This document shows positions 3,660 through 61,511 of a DNA stretch of 64,000 nt, one piece after another; position 1 is the stretch's first letter, and each line of letters starts with the position of its first letter. Source of the stretch: Escherichia phage vB_EcoM-VpaE1. The position numbers were made by a program, and so were the translations under genes. The notes beneath the pieces are model-generated. The model was not told the DNA's origin and did no database searches. It worked only from the letters and a program-made list of their open reading frames with translations. The stretch is from sequence record KM657822; one strand, 5' to 3'.

Positions 3660-4208
3660 ATGAAGAAATTGATTCTAGGTTTGTGCTTAATGCTTACAGC
3701 ACACTTATCTTATGCAGTTGACTGCCCAGAGCTATCAATTAGCCAAAAAGTAAACATGTTAAAAGCTTACCAGTATGGTGAGAATAACATGGGTAAAGGT
3801 TGGGGTATAACTCTAGCTGCTATAGCCTTACAAGAGTCAGAGTTAGGTCTGAAGGTAGAGAATAAAAAGACACATGATTATGGTATTTTCCAGAATCACT
3901 TGAAGACTGTTGTAAAGCGTAACAAAATTAGTCCTAATGTGGCTAAAAAGAAACTCTTAAAAGACTTTGACTATGCTGCAAAGGAAACGCACAAAGAGCT
4001 TGAGTTTTGGACAAAGGTACATGGTCAGCCAAAGTCAAAGAAGACTTTACAAAAAGTTTTAGCATCATATAATGCTGGGTATTCGTACAGAATCCCTAAA
4101 GCTAAGAAGTATTCTCAAGATGTCTATAACAACATGAAAGTTATCGCTCAATGTGAATTTGCAACAAACATTTCTAAGGTAAATCATGAAAAAATTAAGA
4201 AAGTCTGA
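3660..4208 (+). CDS. secreted protein, lytic transglycosylase (SLT)-like
   Basis: N-terminal signal peptide MKKLILGLCLMLTAHLSYA; AIALQESELG...YGIFQ resembles the SLT catalytic-Glu region. Confidence 0.4.
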   Translation: MKKLILGLCLMLTAHLSYAVDCPELSISQKVNMLKAYQYGENNMGKGWGITLAAIALQESELGLKVENKKTHDYGIFQNHLKTVVKRNKISPNVAKKKLLKDFDYAAKETHKELEFWTKVHGQPKSKKTLQKVLASYNAGYSYRIPKAKKYSQDVYNNMKVIAQCEFATNISKVNHEKIKKV

Positions 4209-5408: not shown

Positions 5409-5756
5409 ATGACATTTAAAGAGTTCTGTCAAGCTACTTTCATAATTGTTTTCTTAGTTGGTGCAGGTGTCTGGGGAGGATACTCTTACAGAGACTATCA
5501 AGTTGCTGAAACTGAGCTAAACAATCAAAAGCTCATAAGTGTTGCTAAAGATGCTTATCAGGAAGGATTAGTCACACTGAGCACCAATTACAAAAATGAT
5601 TTGAAAGATGTGCTTGCTAAGAATAAGCATACAAAAGAGGTACTAACATATGAAAAAACTAAGCCAGAGTTTTATAATGTTTGTGTTACTGATAACTATG
5701 TCAGGGTGTTCAACGAACAAAGTGAACAGTACATTCAAAAACTCCCAAGTAAGTGA
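5409..5756 (+). CDS. candidate i-spanin (Rz-like)
   Basis: N-terminal TM segment then helical periplasmic-type region; overlapped at 3' end by a lipoprotein ORF in another frame. Confidence 0.4.
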   Translation: MTFKEFCQATFIIVFLVGAGVWGGYSYRDYQVAETELNNQKLISVAKDAYQEGLVTLSTNYKNDLKDVLAKNKHTKEVLTYEKTKPEFYNVCVTDNYVRVFNEQSEQYIQKLPSK

Positions 5757-7208: not shown

Positions 7209-7994
7209 ATGGGTATTGTAAAAATCATCAATGGTGATATCTTTGCTGCATTTGATAAAGGTAAGTTTGACATCATTGGTCACGGTTGTAATTGTATGAA
7301 TTTAATGGGTGCAGGTATCGCTGACAAGATTTCTAAACTTTACCCAAAAGCATATGAGACCGATACAGAAGTTTACCTATATGCAGGTGGCATAGGTCAC
7401 AAACCCTGTGAAAATTTACTGGGTAATTTCTCTGTAGCACGTTTAGAACAAGGCCGTATAGCTAACCTTTACACTCAGCTTAAGACTGGTAAAGATGCCC
7501 GATACAGTGCTTTAGAGTCATCTTTGAAGCAGCTTAACAGATACTGTGAAGTCAACCAGTTGAAGAAGGTTGGTTTACCTATGATTGGTGCAGGTATCGG
7601 TGGGCTAGACCCTCAAGCCGTCACAGTTATCATTAATCAGGTGATGAAGAGTGTAGATGTGTATCTTTATGTCTACGAAGGAGAGATGTACCACAAGTTA
7701 CGCTCAGGTTGGAAGAACTACTGTGAACCAGAATACTTTGCAGGTGTAGCAGTGTTCACAGATAACGCAGTTACCCTCTTCAGACGAAGAAAAGGTAAGA
7801 TACATCAAAGTAACCCTCCGGTTGAAAAGATGTCTCTAAGTAACGCTCTAGTTACCCACCTGTCGAAGAGCAATCACAGGATTGCAGTAACATTTGGCAG
7901 TGATGCAGATGCTTACATCTATGCAAGAACTGATGAGGATATCGAGACAGTTTTCTCTTCACCAGAAGTTACCTTCTTAGACGCAAAGAACTAA
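7209..7994 (+). CDS. macrodomain protein, TARG1/OARD1 (DarG-like) type, with C-terminal extension
   Basis: GDIFAAFDKGKFDIIGHGCNCMNLMGAGIA and LPMIGAGIGGL match the recalled OARD1/TARG1 blocks GDLFAC...HCISEDCRMGAGIA and MPRIGCGL. Confidence 0.75.
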   Translation: MGIVKIINGDIFAAFDKGKFDIIGHGCNCMNLMGAGIADKISKLYPKAYETDTEVYLYAGGIGHKPCENLLGNFSVARLEQGRIANLYTQLKTGKDARYSALESSLKQLNRYCEVNQLKKVGLPMIGAGIGGLDPQAVTVIINQVMKSVDVYLYVYEGEMYHKLRSGWKNYCEPEYFAGVAVFTDNAVTLFRRRKGKIHQSNPPVEKMSLSNALVTHLSKSNHRIAVTFGSDADAYIYARTDEDIETVFSSPEVTFLDAKN

Positions 7995-8413
7995 GAAACT
8001 CCGTAGAATATTCACAATAGTCTAAGCCTTCCTTATCTGGTAAATTTTTCAGGTAAGGAGGGCTTTTTCATTTCAGATTTGTGCAGGTAGAGTTCTGTAG
8101 AGAAATCTGTAGAGAGAATTTTAAACTCCAAAGAGAAAATTCATTTTCAAACTGTGTAGGTAATCTCCAAAGAGCTTTTTCATTTTCAAAACGTGCAGAG
8201 AAAAATCAGGTCGGGCAAGAAAAATCATTTTAGAATTGTGCAGGTAGGTGGGGATGTCGCCATTTCTCACAAGGCTACCACATCTAAAAAGAAAAGTCAA
8301 CAGAAAAATTTGTAGCGGATTGAAAAATAATTCTTGATTGTAGTTCTGTTTTGTGGTAGTCGCGTGCGCCCGTTTCATTACAGTTTTTTGCAAAAATATT
8401 TTTAAAATCCCTA

Positions 8414-8442
8414 TTGACTCTCTGACTATGGTTATTTAATAT
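8414..8442 (+). promoter_or_regulatory. sigma70-like promoter
   Basis: TTGACT - 17 nt - TAATAT. Confidence 0.6.
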
Positions 8443-8503
8443 TTGCATCAACAGGGGGGCGATGACCTCCCAACTAACTAACCTTAAACTAGGAGATTCA
8501 AAA

Positions 8504-8884
8504 ATGGCTTATCGTGCACCTAAATTCATCAATAAAGACAACTTCCGCAACGCACTGGAGAAGACACTTGATGAAAAATTTAACAGCAAATTGATTGTTG
8601 TTCACGCATATAATTTTAAGTATGATATTAACGGGAACAGAATCAACCATTACACGGCAACAATGTTAGATGGCACACTTTCAAGTGAAAAAGCCATTAT
8701 CAATGCACTTGCAGGACGTGGGAAAAACCTGATAAAATGCGATAAGAGACGTTATCAGGGTGGCGCATATGGCTATGATGATGCTGTTTATCATCTTGAA
8801 AATATGGGCTATTCAGTGGAAAAAGCTGGAGTGTCTCAAATAATCGGCAGTGACGGCTATGTGACAATTTTCAAAATTAACTGA
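8504..8884 (+). CDS. hypothetical early protein
   Basis: ATG preceded by conserved taggagattc RBS cassette. Confidence 0.55.
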   Translation: MAYRAPKFINKDNFRNALEKTLDEKFNSKLIVVHAYNFKYDINGNRINHYTATMLDGTLSSEKAIINALAGRGKNLIKCDKRRYQGGAYGYDDAVYHLENMGYSVEKAGVSQIIGSDGYVTIFKIN

Positions 8885-8972
8885 TAAAGTACTTTACAAG
8901 GGGCTTATAGTTCGATAAAGTAAGCCCCAGATAAAGAGCTTTACCACTAAATCCTAAATTGGAGATTCCAAA

Positions 8973-9230
8973 ATGGCTATTATCAAAAACGTTGTAATTC
9001 ATGCAAAAACTCGTGATGACGCTCGCATCATGGCGAAAAAGTTAGGCGGGAAAGTGATTGACAACGGGAAAAAATCTGCTGTAAGATGGGGCGTACAGGT
9101 TGATAAACGTTTAATCTTAAAACGTAGTTCAAACAACCTTTTTAAAGGTGTAAAATCACTCGGTAAAGTGAACGTCTTTACCAAAAAAGGCTATAAAATG
9201 CACTTATCATTGACTGGCAATTTAATCTGA
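8973..9230 (+). CDS. hypothetical early protein
   Basis: ORF preceded by conserved hairpin+RBS cassette. Confidence 0.55.
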   Translation: MAIIKNVVIHAKTRDDARIMAKKLGGKVIDNGKKSAVRWGVQVDKRLILKRSSNNLFKGVKSLGKVNVFTKKGYKMHLSLTGNLI

Positions 9231-9320
9231 TAAAGTACTTTACAAGGGGCTTAAAAGTTGTTACCTTAAGCCCCAGATAAAGAGCTTTACCACATTAACC
9301 TTAAACTAGGAGATTCTAAA

Positions 9321-9617
9321 ATGAAATTATCAAATAAAGTTAGGGAAAATCTAAGCAAGTTACTCAACAAAATTGATTTTATCGAGACCTCAAGAAATAC
9401 TCATGAGGTTATGGAATGGTTGCACGGGAAAATAAATGGCCGTCGTGTAGTGATTTGCTTATGGAATAGTTGCAGGGAGTATAAAAAACCTGTATTACAA
9501 ATTAATATTTATGACGATACTTTTAAAAGCCCTGTTAAATCTAAAAGTGACTTATTAGAATCTTATGAGATAACTTTAAATGGCAAGGTATCACGCAAAG
9601 AGGTAACACCATGTTAA
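9321..9617 (+). CDS. hypothetical early protein
   Basis: ORF preceded by conserved cassette. Confidence 0.55.
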   Translation: MKLSNKVRENLSKLLNKIDFIETSRNTHEVMEWLHGKINGRRVVICLWNSCREYKKPVLQINIYDDTFKSPVKSKSDLLESYEITLNGKVSRKEVTPC

Positions 9618-9943
9618 TGATGGGGACAACTGCAATCATCGCCATTATAGCACTTTATAAGGCTTACAGCGCCTACAATCTGGCAAGTAAGGCAATTACG
9701 CAACAGGTTAATAATAGCCTTGTAATGAGTTTTCTGGAGCGTTTAAGTGATGAACAAATAAAACGGTTAGAAATGAGCTTCAGATTTCAATCAAAAACTT
9801 ATCAAATCAGCGACATTTTCAAAGATAATTTTCAGCTTGTCGATGATTATAACTCCCTGATAAATGCTTTAAATATCAGTGACTTAAAAGACTATTACAC
9901 TGTAATTGTCCAAGAACTGAACAAACGAAAAAATTTCTCTTGA
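9611..9943 (+). CDS. hypothetical membrane protein
   Basis: ORF with N-terminal hydrophobic segment; start overlaps previous stop. Confidence 0.45.
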   Translation: MLMMGTTAIIAIIALYKAYSAYNLASKAITQQVNNSLVMSFLERLSDEQIKRLEMSFRFQSKTYQISDIFKDNFQLVDDYNSLINALNISDLKDYYTVIVQELNKRKNFS

Positions 9944-10033
9944 TTTTAGTTTTAAAAACAAGTAAATTACTAATCAACGGGGAGGGAATGACCTTCCCCA
10001 CTAAATAAAGTCCTTAAACTAGGAGACTCGAAA

Positions 10034-10306
10034 ATGTATACTACTAACAACGGTCGTACTCTAAACGTAACTTTACGGCACTATGTAGACGGTGTAATGC
10101 ACTTTGAGGATTTACGGGCTGAACAGCACATTTTGGATTGGCAACTTGCAGGATTCCAAAAAACTGTTACAGGATACGGTAAAAAGATTCCAACCAGTTG
10201 GAAGGTACACTATGAAGGACGTTTGCGCAGAATTTATCAGGATGTATGTAGCAATAGTGCATCGAGTTACATCATAGTAAAAGGTAAAAAACTGCATTTA
10301 GTGTAA
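10034..10306 (+). CDS. hypothetical early protein
   Basis: ORF preceded by conserved cassette. Confidence 0.55.
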   Translation: MYTTNNGRTLNVTLRHYVDGVMHFEDLRAEQHILDWQLAGFQKTVTGYGKKIPTSWKVHYEGRLRRIYQDVCSNSASSYIIVKGKKLHLV

Positions 10307-10392
10307 AGTACTTTACAAGGGGCTTATAGTTCGATAAAGTAAGCCCCAGATAAAGAGCTTTACCCCTAAATCCTAAATTGGAGAACTTAAAA

Positions 10393-10797
10393 ATGGCTAT
10401 TAATAACCGTGAGTTATCAATCTTAAAAGCACGTTTGACCGTTAACCGGATTAATGTTATCACGTCATCAGCGCCTGATGAGACATTGCACAACATTATC
10501 GGGAAGATTCAAAGCGTTATCTTAGACGTTGAAAACGTAAAAAAATCATTGGCTGACGTTGCAGCAGGTATCACGCTAGACGGTGCACAATACGAAATGG
10601 CTGACATGTTGGGCAAATCTAAGGTAATGAATAAAGAGCTTGATTTAAAAATGTTCAGATTCGCTGTGAAAGTATGGCTATCCGTCGAGTATGATGCTAA
10701 TTATGCAATCGCTGACTTTTTCGCCACTTGGTTGCAGCGTAATTTGACAAATCACGATTTTCGTAATATCTGCGATGCAATCTATGCAGAACTTTAA
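10393..10797 (+). CDS. hypothetical early protein
   Basis: Start moved to ATG 10393 directly after conserved RBS. Confidence 0.55.
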   Translation: MAINNRELSILKARLTVNRINVITSSAPDETLHNIIGKIQSVILDVENVKKSLADVAAGITLDGAQYEMADMLGKSKVMNKELDLKMFRFAVKVWLSVEYDANYAIADFFATWLQRNLTNHDFRNICDAIYAEL

Positions 10798-10896
10798 AAA
10801 ATTTTCTTGACACTGGTTTTTATGTAGGTTAAATTACACATCAACGGGGGGCGATAACCTCCCCACTAAATAAAACCCTAAACTGGAGATTCTAAA

Positions 10897-11100
10897 ATGG
10901 CTATTATTAACGGTTTAAACATTGAAACTACACACATCAAAGATATTAAAGTTGGTGATGCAGTCCTCTTTCACGGCGTAGAAAAAACCGTCACGGCGAA
11001 AGACATTACAGAGGATTCATTCATGGGTCGGTCGCTCTTCGGTGATTCCTATTGCTTAGGTTACCGTGCGGTTTTAAAAGTTGTCAAAAATAATAAATAA
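10897..11100 (+). CDS. hypothetical early protein
   Basis: ORF preceded by conserved cassette. Confidence 0.5.
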   Translation: MAIINGLNIETTHIKDIKVGDAVLFHGVEKTVTAKDITEDSFMGRSLFGDSYCLGYRAVLKVVKNNK

Positions 11101-11185
11101 AGTACTTTACAAGGGGCTTAAAAGTTGTTACCTTAAGCCCCAGATAAAGAGCTTTACCACTAAATCCTAAACTGGAGATTCAAAA

Positions 11186-11728
11186 ATGAAATGCTTTCAC
11201 GGTACTACCCAAGAAAACTTCCTCAACCTGATTAATAACGGTGATAAGCCATCAGGTGCATGGAATTGTTCGGACATGGACGGCAATTTTTACGTGTATC
11301 CAGAAAATAAAATCTACGGCGACGATGAGGAAGAGATAATCTCTGAAGGCATACAGCAAGCGTTAGGCAATGCCACTATTACAGCCGCTTTCCAGATGAA
11401 AACCCAAAATATTGTTATCTTGGAACTTGATATCCCAGAGGATGACCTGAATGATGATTATTCTTGTGATAATATGTCTGGCGTAGCAAGTTTTACAGAA
11501 TACTTCGATTTAAATTGGATTAAAAAGGTTTATGTAACCGAGTTTAACGCTATGTATTCGCCTTTTTGTCTTCCTTCACTGGATAACCCAAATATGAATT
11601 ATCTTGATGAGACATTAAAACTACTTGCTAAAAGTGTTCAACAATCGGACAGTATTCAGGTTTTTTGTGACATCATGGACACACTAACGGAAAACATCGC
11701 AGAAGAGGATTTGAAGAGCTTTTTCTAA
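11186..11728 (+). CDS. hypothetical early protein
   Basis: ORF preceded by conserved cassette. Confidence 0.55.
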   Translation: MKCFHGTTQENFLNLINNGDKPSGAWNCSDMDGNFYVYPENKIYGDDEEEIISEGIQQALGNATITAAFQMKTQNIVILELDIPEDDLNDDYSCDNMSGVASFTEYFDLNWIKKVYVTEFNAMYSPFCLPSLDNPNMNYLDETLKLLAKSVQQSDSIQVFCDIMDTLTENIAEEDLKSFF

Positions 11729-11794
11729 TAACCTATACAATCACCTTATAAACACTATTCAGCCCCTTGTAGGGGCTTTTAAGAGGCTTAAATC

Positions 11795-12028
11795 ATGCTT
11801 ACAACCGTTTATCTTATCCTTTCTATATGTAATGGTCATTCATGCGATTTTAAAGGGCTTGAAGATTTTACAGGAAGTAAAGAAAATGCTATTCAAGTTT
11901 GCCAGATAGCGAGACAAGACTATCCCGCAAGTGATGATATTCAGTGTTACTTTAAGACAGAAGATGAAGACGGTATCTATTTTGACAGTGTAGATGGTCA
12001 GTATGAAATTATCATTGAAAAAGACTAG
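11795..12028 (+). CDS. hypothetical protein
   Basis: ORF. Confidence 0.4.
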   Translation: MLTTVYLILSICNGHSCDFKGLEDFTGSKENAIQVCQIARQDYPASDDIQCYFKTEDEDGIYFDSVDGQYEIIIEKD

Positions 12029-12117
12029 ACAAGCCTGATAAAAATCTGTAAATTGTCAATCAACGGGGAGGGGATGACCTTCCCCACTAAATAAAATCCT
12101 AAACTGGAGATTCAAAA

Positions 12118-12459
12118 ATGGCTTATGTAACCGTAATTACCGATAAAGCTGGCGCATCTTGGTCAACTCAAGTAAGCGATAAGATGTCACCTATGCAGTG
12201 CCTAAAGTACTTTGAGCAATGGAACAAAGGCGAGGATGTCAGCCCCTTTCAAGTAGTGCAGATTATCCATACAGATAACGAAGGGAAGAAAACTGTTTTG
12301 AATAGTGAGTACTACGCAACCAGATTTGAAACGAGATGTAAAGCAATGAAGCTCTTGCGTGAGTCTGGTTATTCTCATATTGCGGCAATAATCTGGGATG
12401 ACTTGCTAAAAAGTCAGCGTATCAGCTATGTAAAACCTGAAAAAATATTCATCAGTTAA
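12118..12459 (+). CDS. hypothetical early protein
   Basis: ORF preceded by conserved cassette. Confidence 0.55.
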   Translation: MAYVTVITDKAGASWSTQVSDKMSPMQCLKYFEQWNKGEDVSPFQVVQIIHTDNEGKKTVLNSEYYATRFETRCKAMKLLRESGYSHIAAIIWDDLLKSQRISYVKPEKIFIS

Positions 12460-12681
12460 TCAATAACTTACAAAAAACTTTTAAAAAAGTGTTGACAATG
12501 CCCCTTGACATTGGTAACTTTGTTCGAGGGGGTTTATCTAAAAGGGATTAACTTAAAAGATTCTTTATAGATAAACTTAAAAAATTGCTTGCAATCAGAT
12601 ATCAAAACAAGTAAATTACTAATCAACGGGAGGGATAACCTCCCCACTAAGTAAAGTCCTTAAACTAGGAGATTCAAAAAA

Positions 12682-13212
12682 ATGAACAAGTTCAAAGCTA
12701 TCAACTTCATTCGTTCAAATAGTGTTATGTCAAAGCCTGTTAAAGACACCTATGAATTTCGTTGTAATGGTGTACATTTTGCAACAATCACCAAATCAGA
12801 AAACGGGGTTTATTACGTCCATCGTCGTAATGTTTCTACTGTTGTAGTTTCTCACTTTATGCAAGCTGTCGCGGAACTTCTCCCGATGTTTTTAGGTCTT
12901 TACTTAGATGAGTGTAAAAACGTTCACAATCACGTTAAAAACCTTTTAAACAGTTATAAAATGGCTTATGAACGCTCTATCAAGTCCTTAAACAAGTTTT
13001 ACAAAGCACCTGAAAATACTGTGTCAATAGCCTATGGTGTAAGCGGTGAAATGGTAAACTTATCAAATGTGGAAGAAATCAAGCTGCATGATTTACGCCC
13101 TAGCGGTTACTCTAAGACTCTAGGTGAAGGTTTAACGTTCAATATCAAGAACTTAGAGAAAACTTTAAAAGATATTGAAAAAGATATTGACGAGACAATC
13201 AAAAATCTGTAA
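12682..13212 (+). CDS. hypothetical early protein
   Basis: ORF preceded by conserved cassette. Confidence 0.55.
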   Translation: MNKFKAINFIRSNSVMSKPVKDTYEFRCNGVHFATITKSENGVYYVHRRNVSTVVVSHFMQAVAELLPMFLGLYLDECKNVHNHVKNLLNSYKMAYERSIKSLNKFYKAPENTVSIAYGVSGEMVNLSNVEEIKLHDLRPSGYSKTLGEGLTFNIKNLEKTLKDIEKDIDETIKNL

Positions 13213-13280
13213 ATTGTCAATCAACGGGGAGGGGATGACCTTCCCCACTAAATAAAGTTCTTAAACTAGGAGATTCTAAA

Positions 13281-13529
13281 ATGGCAACTATCCGCGCTAC
13301 TGTAAACGCTTATGGCTGTTATACTCTGGACGTTAAATTTGATATTGGTGGGACTGATGAATGTTTTTCCTTAGTGAAGACAGTTATCAAGCAAGTAATC
13401 CCAGATTATAACCCTACTGATGACTTCTGGAAAGATGCCGTAAAAGAGGCCATAAACGATGAGCATCACTATCATTACTGGGGTGATTTGATTGTCTCCC
13501 TGTACTACAATAAACAAGGTTACAACTAA
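13281..13529 (+). CDS. hypothetical early protein
   Basis: ORF preceded by conserved cassette; last gene of the plus-strand block. Confidence 0.55.
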   Translation: MATIRATVNAYGCYTLDVKFDIGGTDECFSLVKTVIKQVIPDYNPTDDFWKDAVKEAINDEHHYHYWGDLIVSLYYNKQGYN

Positions 13530-13567
13530 TCAACGCAGCGGGGCTATTTAGCCCCAGATACCTGAAC

Positions 13568-13589
13568 AGCCCCTCATAGGGGCTTTTTT
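13568..13589 (+). terminator. intrinsic terminator ending plus-strand early block
   Basis: Hairpin gcccctcataggggc followed by T6; preceded by a second hairpin ggggctatttagcccc. Confidence 0.7.
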
Positions 13590-15245
13590 ACGTCTATGTA
13601 ATAGCCTCTATACAACCCCTTTCCTTTCCTTTCCAGAATCTTACTAGACCTTAAAAGCAATAACTCTATAGTCTACTCTATAACCTCTTATCAAATCAAC
13701 TTAAATATAAGCCCATAACCCGAAAGGGAAGGGCAACCATTTAAACGCTCTATAAAGCCCTATAACAGCCTTATCAACCTAACTTAATGGGTTGCATTAA
13801 CTCACCCTTAAAAGCCCTTCCTAGAGCTTCTCAGAGCCTTAAAAGAATCTTATAAGGGTGTAAGCTTTACCATCTCGTTAGTTCCTTGTGAATAACTAAA
13901 AAGGGCTTGTTAGTGTCTTAAAAGTATGTTATAGGGGCTATAAAGTTACTTTGAAGTTGCTTAAAAGTTACGTAAAAGGGGCTATAAAGTTACGTAAATG
14001 CTAGCCCCCTTAACATTTTCTTAACAATTTCTTAACAATCCCTACATAGTTATGCTTTTAAGACACTTGTTAGCAACTTGTTAGCCCCTTGTTAAATCTC
14101 TGTTAAGACCACGTAAAAGCCTTGTAAGAGTCTTTGACATAGCCTTAAAAGCTCCTGTAAAGCTCTATAAAGAGCTATCTGTACAGTTGGGGTGTAACTA
14201 CTAGGAAGAGGCTTAAAAGAGCTTATAAAGAGCTATAGAGAGCTTTTAAGAGGTATGTTTAAGGAATCACTAGGGATTGGTAACAATACCAATTAAGAAA
14301 GGAAGGGAACGATAAGAAAGAGAAGTTGTGTTTGAACCAACCACTGTGACCATGTTAACAGCTTGTTAAAAAGATTAAACACTTGTTAGAAACTTGTTAA
14401 TTATCTTAACAAAATAACTCTTAAAAATTAACTTGTTAGCTCTTGTTAGTCATTTGTTAAGCCTCTGTAAAGACTATTCAGCACTTGTTAGAAAACTGTT
14501 ACAGTCTTGTTAGTTCTGTTAAGAAACTGTTAAGACCTTTGAAGAGTTGTTAAGAGCTTGAGAGAGTTGTTAAGAAATTGTTAAGGATATTTTAAAATTT
14601 TGCAAAGTACTTGTAAGGGAGCTGTTAAGGGCTACCAAGCAGATATACATCATGAGGTAGATTCTACCGAATCAACTCTACAGATATTTTTCAGTTCCTT
14701 CAAAGACCCTAAAAAATGACTTGATAGTCCTATTTTATAAAAATTTTAAAATTCTGAATAATTACCTATACAGCCTTTTAAAAATACAGGTAATAACAGG
14801 CTTATAAGATACCTTGTTAGTACCGTGTTAGACCTTGTGAGATAAGGTCTGTAAAGATATTCCTGTTAAGTTTGTTAAAACAGTCTATATAGAGGCTTAG
14901 TAATACCTAGTGAACACCTATAGAGAGTGTCATAGCTAACATAATGGGTTACTGTTAAGTAACACAGATAACCTAGAGATTAAGAGGTGTATAGGAGCTT
15001 CTAAGAAGGTGTAGAGAGATGGTTAAGGTGATTGTATAGGCTGTTAAGAAGGCTTGTTAGAGGGCTAGTTAGAAGGTTTATACAGAGGGCTATTAAGACC
15101 ACTAGATAGTTACTAAGATACTATATAGTACTATATAACTATATAGAGAGTAAGATTAAGAAGGTTGTTAAGAAGGGTAGATATTTTGTTCACATATGAT
15201 GGTGACCCAGAGGTTGGGACAACCGATAAAATTTTATAAAAATTA
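13590..15245. repeat. ORF-free region with dense same-strand YTGTTAR motif array
   Basis: No ORF of 60 aa or more in the six-frame track; about 28 copies of [CT]TGTTA[AG] all on the plus strand, often 10-11 bp apart; TATAAAG motifs also present. Confidence 0.8.
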
Positions 15246-15279
15246 AAAAGCCCCCGATTAAGGAGGCTCTTAAGATATT

Positions 15280-27894: not shown

Positions 27895-27970
27895 GGGGTC
27901 ATAGTTTATATGGTTAAAATTCGAGTTTTGCAAACTTGGGAACTGAGTTCAATTCTCAGTGACTCCACCA
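27895..27970 (+). tRNA. tRNA-Ala (TGC)
   Basis: Anticodon stem cgagt/acttg, loop ttTGCaa; CCA. Confidence 0.7.
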
Positions 27971-27976
27971 ATTAGT

Positions 27977-28051
27977 GCATCCATAGTTTAAACGGGAAAA
28001 TTACAGTCTTCCAAACTGAGGTTGAGGGTTCGATTCCCTCTGGATGCTCCA
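27977..28051 (+). tRNA. tRNA-Gly (TCC)
   Basis: Anticodon loop ctTCCaa; T-loop GGTTCGATTCC; CCA. Confidence 0.65.
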
Positions 28052-28057
28052 AATAAT

Positions 28058-28134
28058 GCTGCTTTCGTATAATTGGCTATTACACATCCCTTGTAAGGAT
28101 GGAAATGCAGGTTCGAGTCCTGTGAGCAGCACCA
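28058..28134 (+). tRNA. tRNA-Thr (TGT)
   Basis: Anticodon stem catcc/ggatg, loop ctTGTaa; CCA. Confidence 0.7.
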
Positions 28135-28229
28135 ATTCAGAGGTCAAGTGAAAGACCGCTGGTGTCAACTGAAGACCGTAACAAATTCCACGGAGTTGAG
28201 TTAGCGGCACAACTTCAGACCTCTTTCAT

Positions 28230-28304
28230 ACTCGCTTAGTTTATATGGTAAAACATCACCCTTACAAGATGAAGAAAAAGGTTCAAGTCCTTTAGTGAGT
28301 ACCA
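28230..28304 (+). tRNA. tRNA-Val (TAC)
   Basis: Anticodon loop ctTACaa; T-arm aaagg-ttcaagt-ccttt; CCA. Confidence 0.65.
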
Positions 28305-28305
28305 T

Positions 28306-28383
28306 GTTCCAGTATCCCAATTGGCAGAGGATGCAAGCTCAAACCTTGTACTAGTGACGGTTCGAATCCGTCTTGGAACACCA
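28306..28383 (+). tRNA. tRNA with CAA anticodon (Leu by anticodon; short variable arm)
   Basis: Anticodon stem gcaag/cttgt, loop ctCAAac; T-arm gacgg-ttcgaat-ccgtc; CCA. Confidence 0.6.
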
Positions 28384-28402
28384 ATTTTGAGAGGCTATTT
28401 AG

Positions 28403-28960
28403 ATGAGATATTTGAAGTATGCTTCATGGATTTTCCTAGCTTTACTAGAACCATTTGCAGCAACCCTAGCAGTCATCTTAGCACCTTTCGTAGTTCCATT
28501 CTACAGTGAGAAGAAAGGACATCTACCTTTTGGATTCAGATGGATGGAGACCTATGACAACCCAATTGATGGTGATGAAGGCCACGTTAAAAGATGGGCT
28601 AAGATTAGAAAGATTGGTAAGCTGGGTGTCTACATGCAGAGAGTTGGATGGCTCTGGAGAAACAAAGCTTATAACTTCTCTTACCATGTATTAGGAAGAG
28701 ATGTAAAAGATGTTACTAAGTGGAAAGGTAATATCAACGTAAGTTCTAACCCTGAAGATAATCAGACTGGTTATCTCCTAATGTGGAACAGTAATGCTTG
28801 GGGATTATTCGCTTTTATCCCATCAATTAAAGTCTTTGGTAAACAGTTTTACTGGAGAATTTATGTTGGGTGGAAACTTAAAAGTGTTGTCCCAGAAGAA
28901 AGAGCATTCTCAAGGGAAAGAGTTATGTTGGCATTCTTTATTCATCCACTGAGAAAGTAA
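28403..28960 (+). CDS. hypothetical membrane protein encoded inside tRNA cluster
   Basis: 185-aa ORF with N-terminal hydrophobic segment, Trp-rich; no tRNA overlap. Confidence 0.5.
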   Translation: MRYLKYASWIFLALLEPFAATLAVILAPFVVPFYSEKKGHLPFGFRWMETYDNPIDGDEGHVKRWAKIRKIGKLGVYMQRVGWLWRNKAYNFSYHVLGRDVKDVTKWKGNINVSSNPEDNQTGYLLMWNSNAWGLFAFIPSIKVFGKQFYWRIYVGWKLKSVVPEERAFSRERVMLAFFIHPLRK

Positions 28961-28968
28961 AGATTTAA

Positions 28969-29044
28969 AGGGGATTAGTTTACAAGGTTAAAACCTCGGT
29001 CTTTGAAATCGAAGAAGTTGGTTCAATTCCAACATCCCCCGCCA
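28969..29044 (+). tRNA. tRNA-Gln (TTG)
   Basis: Anticodon loop ctTTGaa; unpaired 1-72 (A/C); CCA. Confidence 0.65.
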
Positions 29045-29046
29045 AT

Positions 29047-29125
29047 GCTCCATTACTCCAATTGGCAGAGAGGCCAGACTTAAAATCTGTGTTATGTATC
29101 GGTTCGAATCCGATATGGAGTACCA
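29047..29125 (+). tRNA. tRNA with TAA anticodon (Leu by anticodon; short variable arm)
   Basis: Anticodon loop ctTAAaa; T-arm atcgg-ttcgaat-ccgat; CCA. Confidence 0.6.
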
Positions 29126-29130
29126 AATTT

Positions 29131-29206
29131 AGCGGTATAGCATAACTGGCAATGCAACAGTCTCTGAAGCTGTCCTATTAAGGTTCAAATCCTTATGCCG
29201 CTGCCA
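29131..29206 (+). tRNA. tRNA-Gln (CTG)
   Basis: Anticodon stem acagt/gctgt, loop ctCTGaa; CCA. Confidence 0.65.
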
Positions 29207-29237
29207 CTTCTAAGGGTTCTTACGAGAGTCCTTAAAT

Positions 29238-29313
29238 GTGGCCTTATCATAAATGGTAATGACCCATGCTGTGAACATGGTCTATACGGGTTCAAATCCC
29301 GTAGGTCACCCCA
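29238..29313 (+). tRNA. tRNA-His (GTG)
   Basis: Anticodon stem ccatg/catgg, loop ctGTGaa; CCA. Confidence 0.7.
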
Positions 29314-29318
29314 ATTTA

Positions 29319-29395
29319 TAGTCCAAGTAGCTTATATGGTTAAAGCGCGTGTCTGAAAAACATGAGAAGAGGGTTCAAATCCCACTGGACTACCA
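29319..29395 (+). tRNA. tRNA-Phe (GAA)
   Basis: Anticodon loop ctGAAaa; T-loop GGTTCAAATCC; acceptor register ambiguous by 1-2 nt. Confidence 0.6.
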
Positions 29396-29411
29396 ATTTC
29401 AAAGGTGCTTA

Positions 29412-30146
29412 ATGAAAGAGATGACAGAACAAGGTAAGGAGATTTTTAATCTCTTAAAAACCGGTAAAGGGTTTTCTAACCCACTTATTACTGGTGCAGC
29501 AGTTCTCGGTGGAACCGTAGCTGCCTCTACATCACTTGTAAGCTCTATTAGCTCTGTAACAGACCCTGCAATGAAGGAGAAACTTGTTGCTGCTGGACTT
29601 ACAACAGTCCTTCTAAACAGCTTTACAACAAGCCTTACAAGCACTACAGCAACTACTAAGACCCTAACAGACTACGGTCAAAAGTCTATTGATGAGTTTT
29701 CATCACGTATGCAGGTAGCAAAGGGATATTCCAATGTTATGGGTGCAGCAGGAGAACAGGTTGGTTGTACACCATTCAGTGGTATTATGGGTGTTGCTAC
29801 AGAATATGGTCAAAAAGCTATTGACACAATTAACAGTACACTAGATAGTGTTAATGGTGTGTTAAGTGACTTACAAGATGCTATTGATAAGGGTCTTGAT
29901 ACTGTTTCTGATTTAGCTAACCAAGCTGTTAGTAAGATTAATGAAGGTATCTCAAAGATTACAGCTTATGCAGATGAAGTTGTGCAGATGATTGAAGAAG
30001 AAGCTGCCCTTATTGCAGAGTACCTTAAAACGAATATCAATGGGTTCTTAGCAGGTATCTTACCAGACTGGTTTGACGATGCTTGTAAAACTGGTGTGAT
30101 TGACACTATTGCAACACCAGAAATGAAGAACGCATTACAGAAATAA
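29412..30146 (+). CDS. hypothetical protein (Gly/Ala-rich N-region, helical C-region)
   Basis: Start moved to ATG 29412 after aaaggtg RBS, downstream of tRNA-Phe. Confidence 0.5.
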   Translation: MKEMTEQGKEIFNLLKTGKGFSNPLITGAAVLGGTVAASTSLVSSISSVTDPAMKEKLVAAGLTTVLLNSFTTSLTSTTATTKTLTDYGQKSIDEFSSRMQVAKGYSNVMGAAGEQVGCTPFSGIMGVATEYGQKAIDTINSTLDSVNGVLSDLQDAIDKGLDTVSDLANQAVSKINEGISKITAYADEVVQMIEEEAALIAEYLKTNINGFLAGILPDWFDDACKTGVIDTIATPEMKNALQK

Positions 30147-30147
30147 T

Positions 30148-30240
30148 GGAAGATTAACCCTAAAAGGTAAGGGAGCAGTTTGCTAAACTGCTAGTAGCTG
30201 AGAAATCGGTGTACCAGTTCAAGTCTGGTATCTTCCTCCA
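30148..30240 (+). tRNA. tRNA-Ser (GCT)
   Basis: 93 nt with long variable arm; anticodon stem gcagt/actgc, loop ttGCTaa; CCA; begins 2 nt after upstream stop codon. Confidence 0.7.
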
Positions 30241-30244
30241 ATTT

Positions 30245-30320
30245 GAATCCGTGACAGAAATGGATATGTGCCTGTCTGCAAAACAGGTTTATAAGGGTTC
30301 AAGTCCCTTCGGATTCTCCA
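30245..30320 (+). tRNA. tRNA-Cys (GCA)
   Basis: Anticodon stem cctgt/acagg, loop ctGCAaa; T-arm aaggg-ttcaagt-ccctt; CCA. Confidence 0.7.
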
Positions 30321-61450: not shown

Positions 61451-61511
61451 ATGGCCTCCTATATAAGATATTGTATAAGGTACTCTTCCATGAGCACCTT
61501 GTCAATACTAA

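Follow-up and report, generated by a model that had tools for sequence, protein, structure and literature searches.

In a 64,000-nucleotide (nt) stretch of the genome of Escherichia phage vB_EcoM-VpaE1 (KM657822), which stretch we refer to throughout as the window, almost every gene of an array of small early genes is preceded by one of two kinds of repeated intergenic cassette, here called type A and type B. From their anatomy we consider these cassettes to be, with a probability of roughly 0.7, composite units of a promoter and a stem-loop, each expressing one small early gene, of the kind known in the T4-like phages as promoter-early stem-loops (PeSLs; Arbiol et al., 2010, PMC2839356; Comeau et al., 2014, PMC4122927). 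Each cassette would combine a promoter of the host sigma-70 type with a stem-loop rich in GC and with a leader of standard form, which is A-rich and bears GGAG as its Shine-Dalgarno (SD) sequence; at the DNA level, the cassettes would also be sites of homologous recombination for the deletion, insertion, or replacement of gene-plus-cassette units.

The small-gene array and its cassettes

The window belongs to Felixounavirus, the genus of the Felix O1-like myoviruses that infect E. coli and Salmonella, and its positions 8400-13600 are about 90% identical to many Felixounavirus genomes, such as that of phage heid. The array consists of 12 small plus-strand genes within some 5 kb; its neighbours on the 5' side are a terminator and a 350-bp non-coding stretch, and its 3' limit is the terminator at 13568. 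In searches of Pfam and PHROGs the array proteins matched solely families of unknown function, and no recognisable DNA-binding protein was found among them.

Profile searches with nhmmer located four type A and six type B cassettes in the window, all of them on the plus strand in the interval 8412-13270 and with E-values of 1e-11 to 1e-24, and found nothing comparable in the remainder of the 64 kb. The cassettes stand in front of 10 of the 12 genes, which result upholds the claim of a preliminary description of this DNA that two cassette families precede almost every small early gene; that the two alternate was true only loosely, the actual order along the array being B A A (coupled) B A B A (terminator) B B B. 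Of the two genes without a cassette, gene 9611 is coupled translationally to the preceding one, and the promoterless gene 11795 (11795-12028) lies after a true terminator. The cassettes measure about 90 bp and have a 3' leader/SD module that is common to both types. In all ten, the SD core is GGAG (e.g., at 8492-8495), the motif that the RegB nuclease of phage T4 cuts within SD sequences in the shutoff of early genes.

The same cassettes had been recorded before, though only as repeats: they correspond to DR_1 to DR_9 in the GenBank record of wV8 and to the 57-bp and 39-bp repeats of Felix O1. The Felix O1 genome paper lists the latter without comment, names five other promoters, and states that the temporal regulation and the passage around terminators are unknown; the ten additional host-type promoters that the sequence suggests within 5 kb would answer that paper's open question of how the early small genes are transcribed. 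According to the reverse-transcription PCR (RT-PCR) table for Felix O1, the open reading frames (ORFs) 16 and 20, of type A, and 21 and 22, of type B, reach their maximum at 5 min post infection (PMC3185647); the table lends no support to the notion, which we also considered, that types A and B represent early and middle promoter classes.

Type A: a probable promoter with an embedded hairpin

The pattern GGGGCTTA-N13-TAAGCCCC occurs exactly four times in the 64 kb—at 8900, 9246, 10319, and 11113—against an expected number of 0 from 100 shuffles. Type A had been described as a hairpin immediately after the previous stop codon, followed by a further sequence and a ribosome-binding site; the hairpin and its flanks, AAAGTACTTTACAAGGGGC and AGATAAAGAGCTTTACC, are indeed present in the window as had been stated, but the unit is more than a hairpin, since it also contains the elements of a promoter: an invariant TTTACA, a 17-nt spacer, and TAnnnT.

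The first type A cassette (8885-8975) comprises the upstream arm TAAAGTACTTTA (8885-8896), the TTTACA at -35 (8893-8898), the hairpin (8900-8928), the -10 hexamer TAAAGT (8916-8921), the downstream arm TAAAGAGCTTTA (8932-8943), the SD (8961-8964), and the ATG at 8973, with a folding energy of -25.7 and a z of -4.55 in addition to the nhmmer match. The remaining three were each recognised by pattern, fold, and nhmmer. The second (9231-9323) has its -35 at 9239-9244, hairpin at 9246-9274, -10 hexamer TACCTT at 9262-9267, downstream arm at 9278-9289, SD at 9309-9312, and ATG at 9321; the third (10304-10395), its -35 at 10312-10317, hairpin at 10319-10347, TAAAGT at 10335-10340, downstream arm at 10351-10362, SD at 10380-10383, and ATG at 10393; and the fourth (11098-11188), its -35 at 11106-11111, hairpin at 11113-11141, TACCTT at 11129-11134, downstream arm at 11145-11156, SD at 11174-11177, and ATG at 11186. 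The loops fall into two subtypes, one shared by the copies at 8900 and 10319 and the other, subtype 2, by those at 9246 and 11113.

For the conservation of type A we aligned 75 distinct cores, taken from the upstream regions of ten relatives in four genera of the Ounavirinae—Felixounavirus, Mooglevirus, Suspvirus, and Kolesnikvirus—and from viral contigs containing CCAGATAAAGAGNTTT; the scan of the contigs by exact pattern gave many lone chance matches, which were removed by demanding the -35 context. The invariant columns read CTTTACA, then T-A-n-n-n-T, and then GATAAAGAG.TTT. The -35 hexamer is TTTACA in 74 of the 75 copies, the spacer measures 17 nt in 67 and 18 nt in the other 8, and the -10 conforms to TAnnnT in every copy, though spread over 14 different hexamers. 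The GGGGCTTA/TAAGCCCC hairpin lies within the spacer and overlaps the -10. Since the three key bases of the -10 are fixed although the loop around them varies, and since their distance from a -35-like hexamer is that of a promoter—an outcome that a hairpin would not yield—type A bears the signature of a sigma-70 promoter, and we interpret it as a probable promoter of that type with a hairpin contained in it. Transcription would then start about 7 nt past the -10, near AGAUAAAGAG, and because of the position of the hairpin in the spacer and the -10, the RNA initiated at a type A promoter would lack that hairpin, which structure would be present only in RNA reading through from upstream.

The AAAGTnnTTGACA context is also found at other promoters of the phage. 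Some type A copies read AATTGCTTTA, which similarity led us to consider a MotA box; in the T4 middle promoters that box lies about 12 nt from the -10. In the type A copies the distance is about 19 nt, and the Felix O1 paper reports no polymerase-modifying proteins, so that we discarded this candidate.

Type B: a probable promoter followed by a hairpin at the presumed 5' end

The six type B copies of the window have the common layout of a -35-like hexamer, 17 nt, TAAATT or TAATAT, ATCAAC, a G/C hairpin of 6-8 bp, ACTAA(A/G)TAAA, TAAACT(A)GGAGA, and ATG; the promoter elements that had been attributed to this type are accordingly present. Five of these copies had been listed, and all five are real; the omitted one, at 8412-8503, contains the presumed first promoter of the array. 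In that cassette (8414-8506; nhmmer E 2.9e-11) TTGACT lies at 8414-8419, TAATAT at 8437-8442, ATCAAC at 8447-8452, the hairpin at 8454-8471, the SD at 8492-8495, and the ATG at 8504. The other five, which were identified by fold and nhmmer, all have TAAATT as the -10. The second (9940-10036) starts with TTGATT (9940-9945), which hexamer overlaps the upstream stop codon, and continues with the -10 at 9963-9968, hairpin at 9979-9999, SD at 10022-10025, and ATG at 10034. The third (10807-10899) has TTGACA at 10807-10812, the -10 at 10830-10835, the hairpin at 10846-10864, the SD at 10885-10888, and the ATG at 10897; the fourth (12026-12120), TAGACA at 12026-12031, the -10 at 12049-12054, the hairpin at 12065-12085, the SD at 12106-12109, and the ATG at 12118; and the fifth (12589-12684), TTGCAA at 12589-12594, the -10 at 12612-12617, the hairpin at 12628-12644, the SD at 12668-12671, and the ATG at 12682. 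In the sixth (13187-13283), TTGACG (13187-13192) lies within the upstream coding sequence, with the -10 at 13210-13215, hairpin at 13226-13246, SD at 13269-13272, and ATG at 13281. 

Among 124 distinct type B copies the -35 hexamers resemble TTGACA, being TTGACA, TTGCAA, TTGACT, TTGACG, TAGACA, or TTGATT, the spacer measures 17 nt in 113, and in 97 of the 114 that bear a hairpin this structure starts 10 nt past the -10. The position is nevertheless occupied by more than 40 different sequences, including compensatory variants such as GGTGAGG/CCTCAC. Since the position of the hairpin is conserved and its sequence is not, the pattern suggests a structural role of a generic kind at the very 5' end of the RNA; as judged from the -10, the hairpin would begin about 3 nt after the start of transcription and therefore at the 5' end of its own mRNA. 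There it could cap the message and protect it against decay, and it could in addition mark the 3' side of RNA coming from upstream. The hairpin of the ompA 5' untranslated region, a 5'-terminal stem-loop, hinders decay that depends on the 5' end; the type B hairpin would be similar to it in starting some 3 nt from the 5' end of the mRNA, a distance derived from the position of the -10 only.

A predicted helix spanning the probable type A promoter

The flanks TAAAGTACTTTA and TAAAGAGCTTTA of type A are complementary to each other across the promoter, and each copy folds into helices of 6, 5, and 8-9 bp, broken by one 1x1 mismatch and one 3x3 internal loop, that is, an interrupted helix of about 20 bp. 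Folds of the single sequences gave -24 to -28 kcal/mol, with z from -3.3 to -4.6, and RNAalifold returned the same three helices independently from the type A alignment. In the named structure, 97.6% of the cells pair, and the score for covariation amounts to 0.106 versus 0.056; neither the paired share nor this score was reached in any of 500 shuffles, although these statistics overstate the significance in that the copies are related and the covariation stems from few independent events. The outer-helix pair of columns 9 and 62 is GC in 55 copies and UA in 11, and the inner-helix pair of columns 23 and 49 is GC in 66 copies and UA in 9, all of the latter from Kolesnikvirus. In the RNA, the invariant GAUAAAGAGCUUUA pairs with the -35 strand (CUUUA) together with the bases that precede it on the 5' side; GATAAAG would accordingly be invariant for being the complement of the -35 strand. 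As both arms occur together only in read-through RNA, it is on such RNA that the helix must act.

In such RNA the whole promoter region would fold into the interrupted helix, with the hairpin inside, and as part of the main interpretation we expect this helix to insulate the gene from upstream transcription through either attenuation or a cleavage of the RNase III type, while leaving a protective 3' stem on the upstream message. More tentatively, type A may be doubly coded: as DNA it would be a promoter, and in read-through RNA the -35 strand and the first transcribed bases would form the helix of about 20 bp, by which the incoming transcript would be cut or stopped. If this proposal is true, each of the tandem promoters would be insulated from the preceding one, and an explanation would be at hand for why TTTACA never drifts to TTGACA and for the invariance of GATAAAGAG.TTT over four genera.

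In phage T7 three upstream promoters give one long early transcript, and the irregular helices that lie between the early genes, about two turns in length, are cut by E. coli RNase III. Only type A resembles those sites—the type B stems, of 6-8 bp, being too short—in its location between cistrons of an early region transcribed by the host RNA polymerase, its irregular helix, which contains an internal loop and measures about 20 bp, and the absence of a U-run; and cleavage at type A would, by analogy, leave a 3' stem on the upstream message. The two systems differ in that nearly every gene of the array would have a promoter of its own, whereas those of T7 do not, and in that one strand of the type A helix is the -35 region of the promoter itself; cleavage in the present instance is suggested only by the analogy.

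These same observations could be explained if type A were purely an intercistronic RNA element of a polycistronic early mRNA, recognised by RNase III or by another protein and lacking its own promoter, with the type B hairpins being recognition sites in the 5' untranslated region. An interrupted helix with a 3x3 internal loop that begins at the upstream stop codon, the covariation in both the outer and the inner helices, the missing U-runs, and the precedent of T7 would all agree with such an element. RNA pairing alone, however, does not explain why three bases, T-A-n-n-n-T, are invariant in a loop and 3' arm that are free in other respects, at exactly 17-18 nt from an invariant TTTACA in 75 of 75 copies, and the type B loops are not conserved. 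We thus regard this alternative as unlikely, but it fails only as the sole role of the cassettes and fits the composite promoter/stem-loop interpretation as an added role at the RNA level. The earlier suggestion that the hairpins were sites for a protein or an RNase can be divided along the same line: an RNase III-type role is plausible for type A, with its long, covarying helix, whereas for type B the lack of loop conservation across genera and the great variety of hairpin sequences argue against a sequence-specific protein site.

The cassette hairpins compared with terminators

None of the ten cassette hairpins is followed by a U-run, and a terminator scan of this strand made calls only at 8024-8065 and 13568-13584, thus calling no cassette hairpin. 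The array does possess true terminators for comparison: the one at 8024; the sequence CAGCCCCTTGTAGGGGCTTTT at 11757-11776 (plus strand), before the promoterless gene 11795-12028, with the wV8 record giving a Rho-independent terminator at the site orthologous to this sequence; and the one that closes the array at 13568-13584 (plus strand), consisting of AGCCCCTCATAGGGGCT followed by TTTTTT. All three carry U-runs, which contrast bears out the preliminary description in its view that the cassette hairpins are not canonical terminators. Rfam covariance models matched the cassettes neither at the gathering threshold nor at E-values of up to 1.

The possibility that these hairpins were ordinary intrinsic terminators ending the transcript of each gene—or antisense terminators, in type B—might be raised by the GC-rich stems directly after stop codons, by a PeSL stem-loop that cut lacZ expression as strongly as rrnB T1 (PMC2839356), and by the wV8 and KhF1 records, in which the type B hairpins are annotated as minus-strand Rho-independent terminators, although the scan did not call them. 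That possibility we consider improbable in view of the foregoing contrast in U-runs and calls, and also because efficient termination at the type B hairpin, which is situated downstream of the promoter of the same cassette, would silence the gene.

The near-palindromic flanks of type A

Both type A flanks are near-perfect 12-bp palindromes (TAAAG-NN-CTTTA) and extremely conserved, with one overlapping the -35 and the other the start site, as would be expected of DNA operators at which a dimeric regulator of the phage or the host, bound over the -35 and +1, switched the promoters off or on. The changes that have occurred speak very strongly against this notion: in 11 distinct copies columns 9 and 62 changed together, from G-C to T-A, so that the palindromes were broken and the complementarity of the arms was kept, and columns 12 and 59, the self-palindrome partners that would have to change for the palindromes to be maintained, never vary. 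Nor does the array encode a recognisable DNA-binding protein. What the evolution of type A preserves is the pairing of arm to arm.

Gain and loss of genes at the cassettes

We constructed an ortholog map of nine genomes, over which the gene order is colinear and at least 10 events of presence/absence or replacement can be distinguished, each affecting a unit of one gene and its cassette. Moreover, the type of cassette before a given gene can change: in front of the 126-aa gene the window has type B, but Bas63, SUSP2, and Mordin have type A; the 113-aa gene likewise follows type B in the window, with type A instead in wV8, Mordin, and Sf16; and the 180-aa gene follows type A in most genomes and type B in Mijalis. 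Even between phages of about 90% identity, the cassette subtype at one slot may differ.

By alignment we mapped three junctions inside cassettes, two of them in the shared leader/SD module. The Mijalis sequence agrees with Mordin's cassette for the missing gene as far as the shared CCAACAATCCTAAACTGGAGAATCTAAAATG, and beyond that with the cassette of the next gene; in the window cassette at 12026 the sequence passes, within the leader, from the cassette of an extra gene of wV8 to that of the 113-aa gene; and the first cassette of the window is composed of the promoter half of one Bas63 cassette, located upstream of a different gene, and the leader of another. The cassettes, as read from these alignments, are the crossover points of gene gain and loss. 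Their length of about 90 bp and the 3' module common to both types are the reasons for which we believe that they act as sites of homologous recombination, and the location of the mapped junctions, in the leader/SD homology or around the type B hairpin, fits that mechanism. An integron-like gene-cassette system with sites comparable to the folded attC is scarcely credible, despite the small same-strand genes separated by imperfect inverted repeats of 60-90 bp and the cassette-wise gain and loss, since none of the retrieved loci has an annotated recombinase, the junctions do not share the one fixed core crossover site beside an integrase that integrons have, and the cassettes carry promoters, which attC sites do not.

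Two places in the relatives have the appearance of deletion scars: in Mordin, at about 3845-3950 of its locus, two type A cassettes stand head to tail without a gene between them, and in another locus (L014), near 7472, an SD and an ATG run directly into the -35 of the next type A. In Kolesnikvirus, the Erwinia-phage genus (Panisse and ST-3; loci L004 and L009), a third cassette type occurs, for example at 5651-5719 and 8138-8215 of L004, with TTGCAA or TTTACA, the hairpin GGGGTTAYGGTTATGAGAYTATAACCCC, and then GTCGAAACAAACAACCC, in a different SD context, AAAGGAA. The existence of this third type implies that the cassette system diversifies by genus.

Relationship to the promoter-early stem-loops of T4-like phages

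The PeSLs are divided into subclasses by the place of the stem-loop relative to the -35 and -10, flank ORFans in variable regions (PMC2839356), and have been shown experimentally to possess promoter activity and terminator activity and to form mini-circles (PMC2839356, PMC4122927). Like the PeSLs, the cassettes are intergenic repeated motifs of about 70-100 bp that lead from an upstream stop codon and an AT-rich stretch, through sigma-70-like -35 and -10 boxes at promoter spacing and a stem-loop with a G-run and a C-run, up to the next gene's SD and start codon; the stem-loop has a defined place—in the stretch separating the -35 from the -10, overlapping a box, or downstream of the -10, depending on the subclass; the units cluster beside small genes of unknown function in variable regions; and the indels and replacements between close relatives are bounded by them.

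Certain differences should be pointed out as well. The window and all the other carriers belong to the Ounavirinae, and not to the T4-like myoviruses, for which alone PeSLs have been claimed, so that the likeness is one of architecture and kinship of sequence is not to be expected; as the PeSL kind is itself defined by architecture, this mismatch of lineage limits the statement that the cassettes are the same family by descent, but not that they are of the same kind. In place of the five loose architectures of the PeSLs, only two rigid ones are found here, the hairpins lack U-runs, and the present cassettes are known from sequence alone. In type A, furthermore, an extra outer helix joins the -35 region to the first transcribed bases, and this promoter-spanning helix is the sole feature that goes beyond the published description of PeSLs. 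The explanation is therefore largely an ordinary one: PeSL-like cassettes in a second phage subfamily. Our literature search, outside which the phiEa21-4 genome paper (Lehman, 2009) remained, found neither a link between the Felix O1-like phages and PeSLs nor transcript maps.

Several points weigh against the composite promoter/stem-loop interpretation, in addition to the small number of independent events behind the covariation. In Felix O1, ORFs 17, 19, and 23 peak at 25 min, so that the timing by RT-PCR does not split the array cleanly (PMC3185647). The type A hexamers, TTTACA and either TAAAGT or TACCTT, are weak by consensus, and as TTTACA is never TTGACA, its invariance may reflect a constraint other than the binding of sigma-70. 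The stem-loop of a PeSL terminated efficiently in a reporter (PMC2839356), and the function may not be transferable to cassette hairpins without U-runs. Finally, it is from the anatomy, conservation pattern, covariation, and recombination junctions that we observed that we infer the promoter activity and strength, the start sites, and the effects of the hairpins on RNA.

If the interpretation is right, the PeSL idea, namely that regulatory cassettes double as recombination sites by which accessory genes are shuffled, would extend past the T4-like phages. The cassettes also mark the places of accessory-gene turnover in the Felix O1-like phages, which are used for the typing and biocontrol of Salmonella and E. 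coli, and could be ready-made insertion points and expression units for engineering.

Neighbouring repeats and other promoter-hairpins

Ahead of the first cassette, the non-coding DNA that follows the terminator at 8024-8065 contains, at 8059-8243 and 8366-8393, four to five copies of a repeat of about 30 nt (TTTTCATTTTCA..TGTGCAGGTAG) at distances of 40-110 bp; some relatives annotate small minus-strand ORFs there. Within the array, a non-coding segment of about 130 nt at 12460-12588, conserved in three genera, has TTGACA, 17 nt, and TAACTT (in relatives, TAGATT or TACATT) inside the hairpin CCCCTTGA..TCGAGGGG, followed by TTTAT and then by a further conserved stretch ..AAAAGGGATTAACTTAAAAGATTCTTTATAGATAA; this segment may represent either a small RNA or a terminator in which a promoter is embedded. 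Directly before the closing terminator, at 13529-13560, a degenerate hybrid remnant of a cassette reads ATCAACGCAGC, similar to type B, and then GGGGCTATTTAGCCCCAGATAC, similar to type A.

Beyond the array, a non-coding region of 1.75 kb (13530-15279) between two convergent gene arrays is dense in short direct and inverted repeats, among them units of TGTTAAGA / CTTGTTA and an inverted pair of 29 nt whose members are 528 nt apart; repeat_regions are tagged there in the heid record, and the region may be an origin or the end of the genome. More promoters whose spacer contains a hairpin, or whose boxes are spanned by one, occur at 2372-2405, 25330-25365, and 61451-61511 (minus strand), reading TTGACA-AGGGGCTTCAAAACCCCT-TAAAAT, GGGTATTGACAATGTGTTTAATACCC and then TTTAATAT, and TTGACA-AGGTGCTCATGGAAGAG-TACCTT, respectively, so that this phage seems to embed hairpins in its promoters as a general practice. 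On the plus strand, 23 tRNA genes are clustered at 25483-30317.

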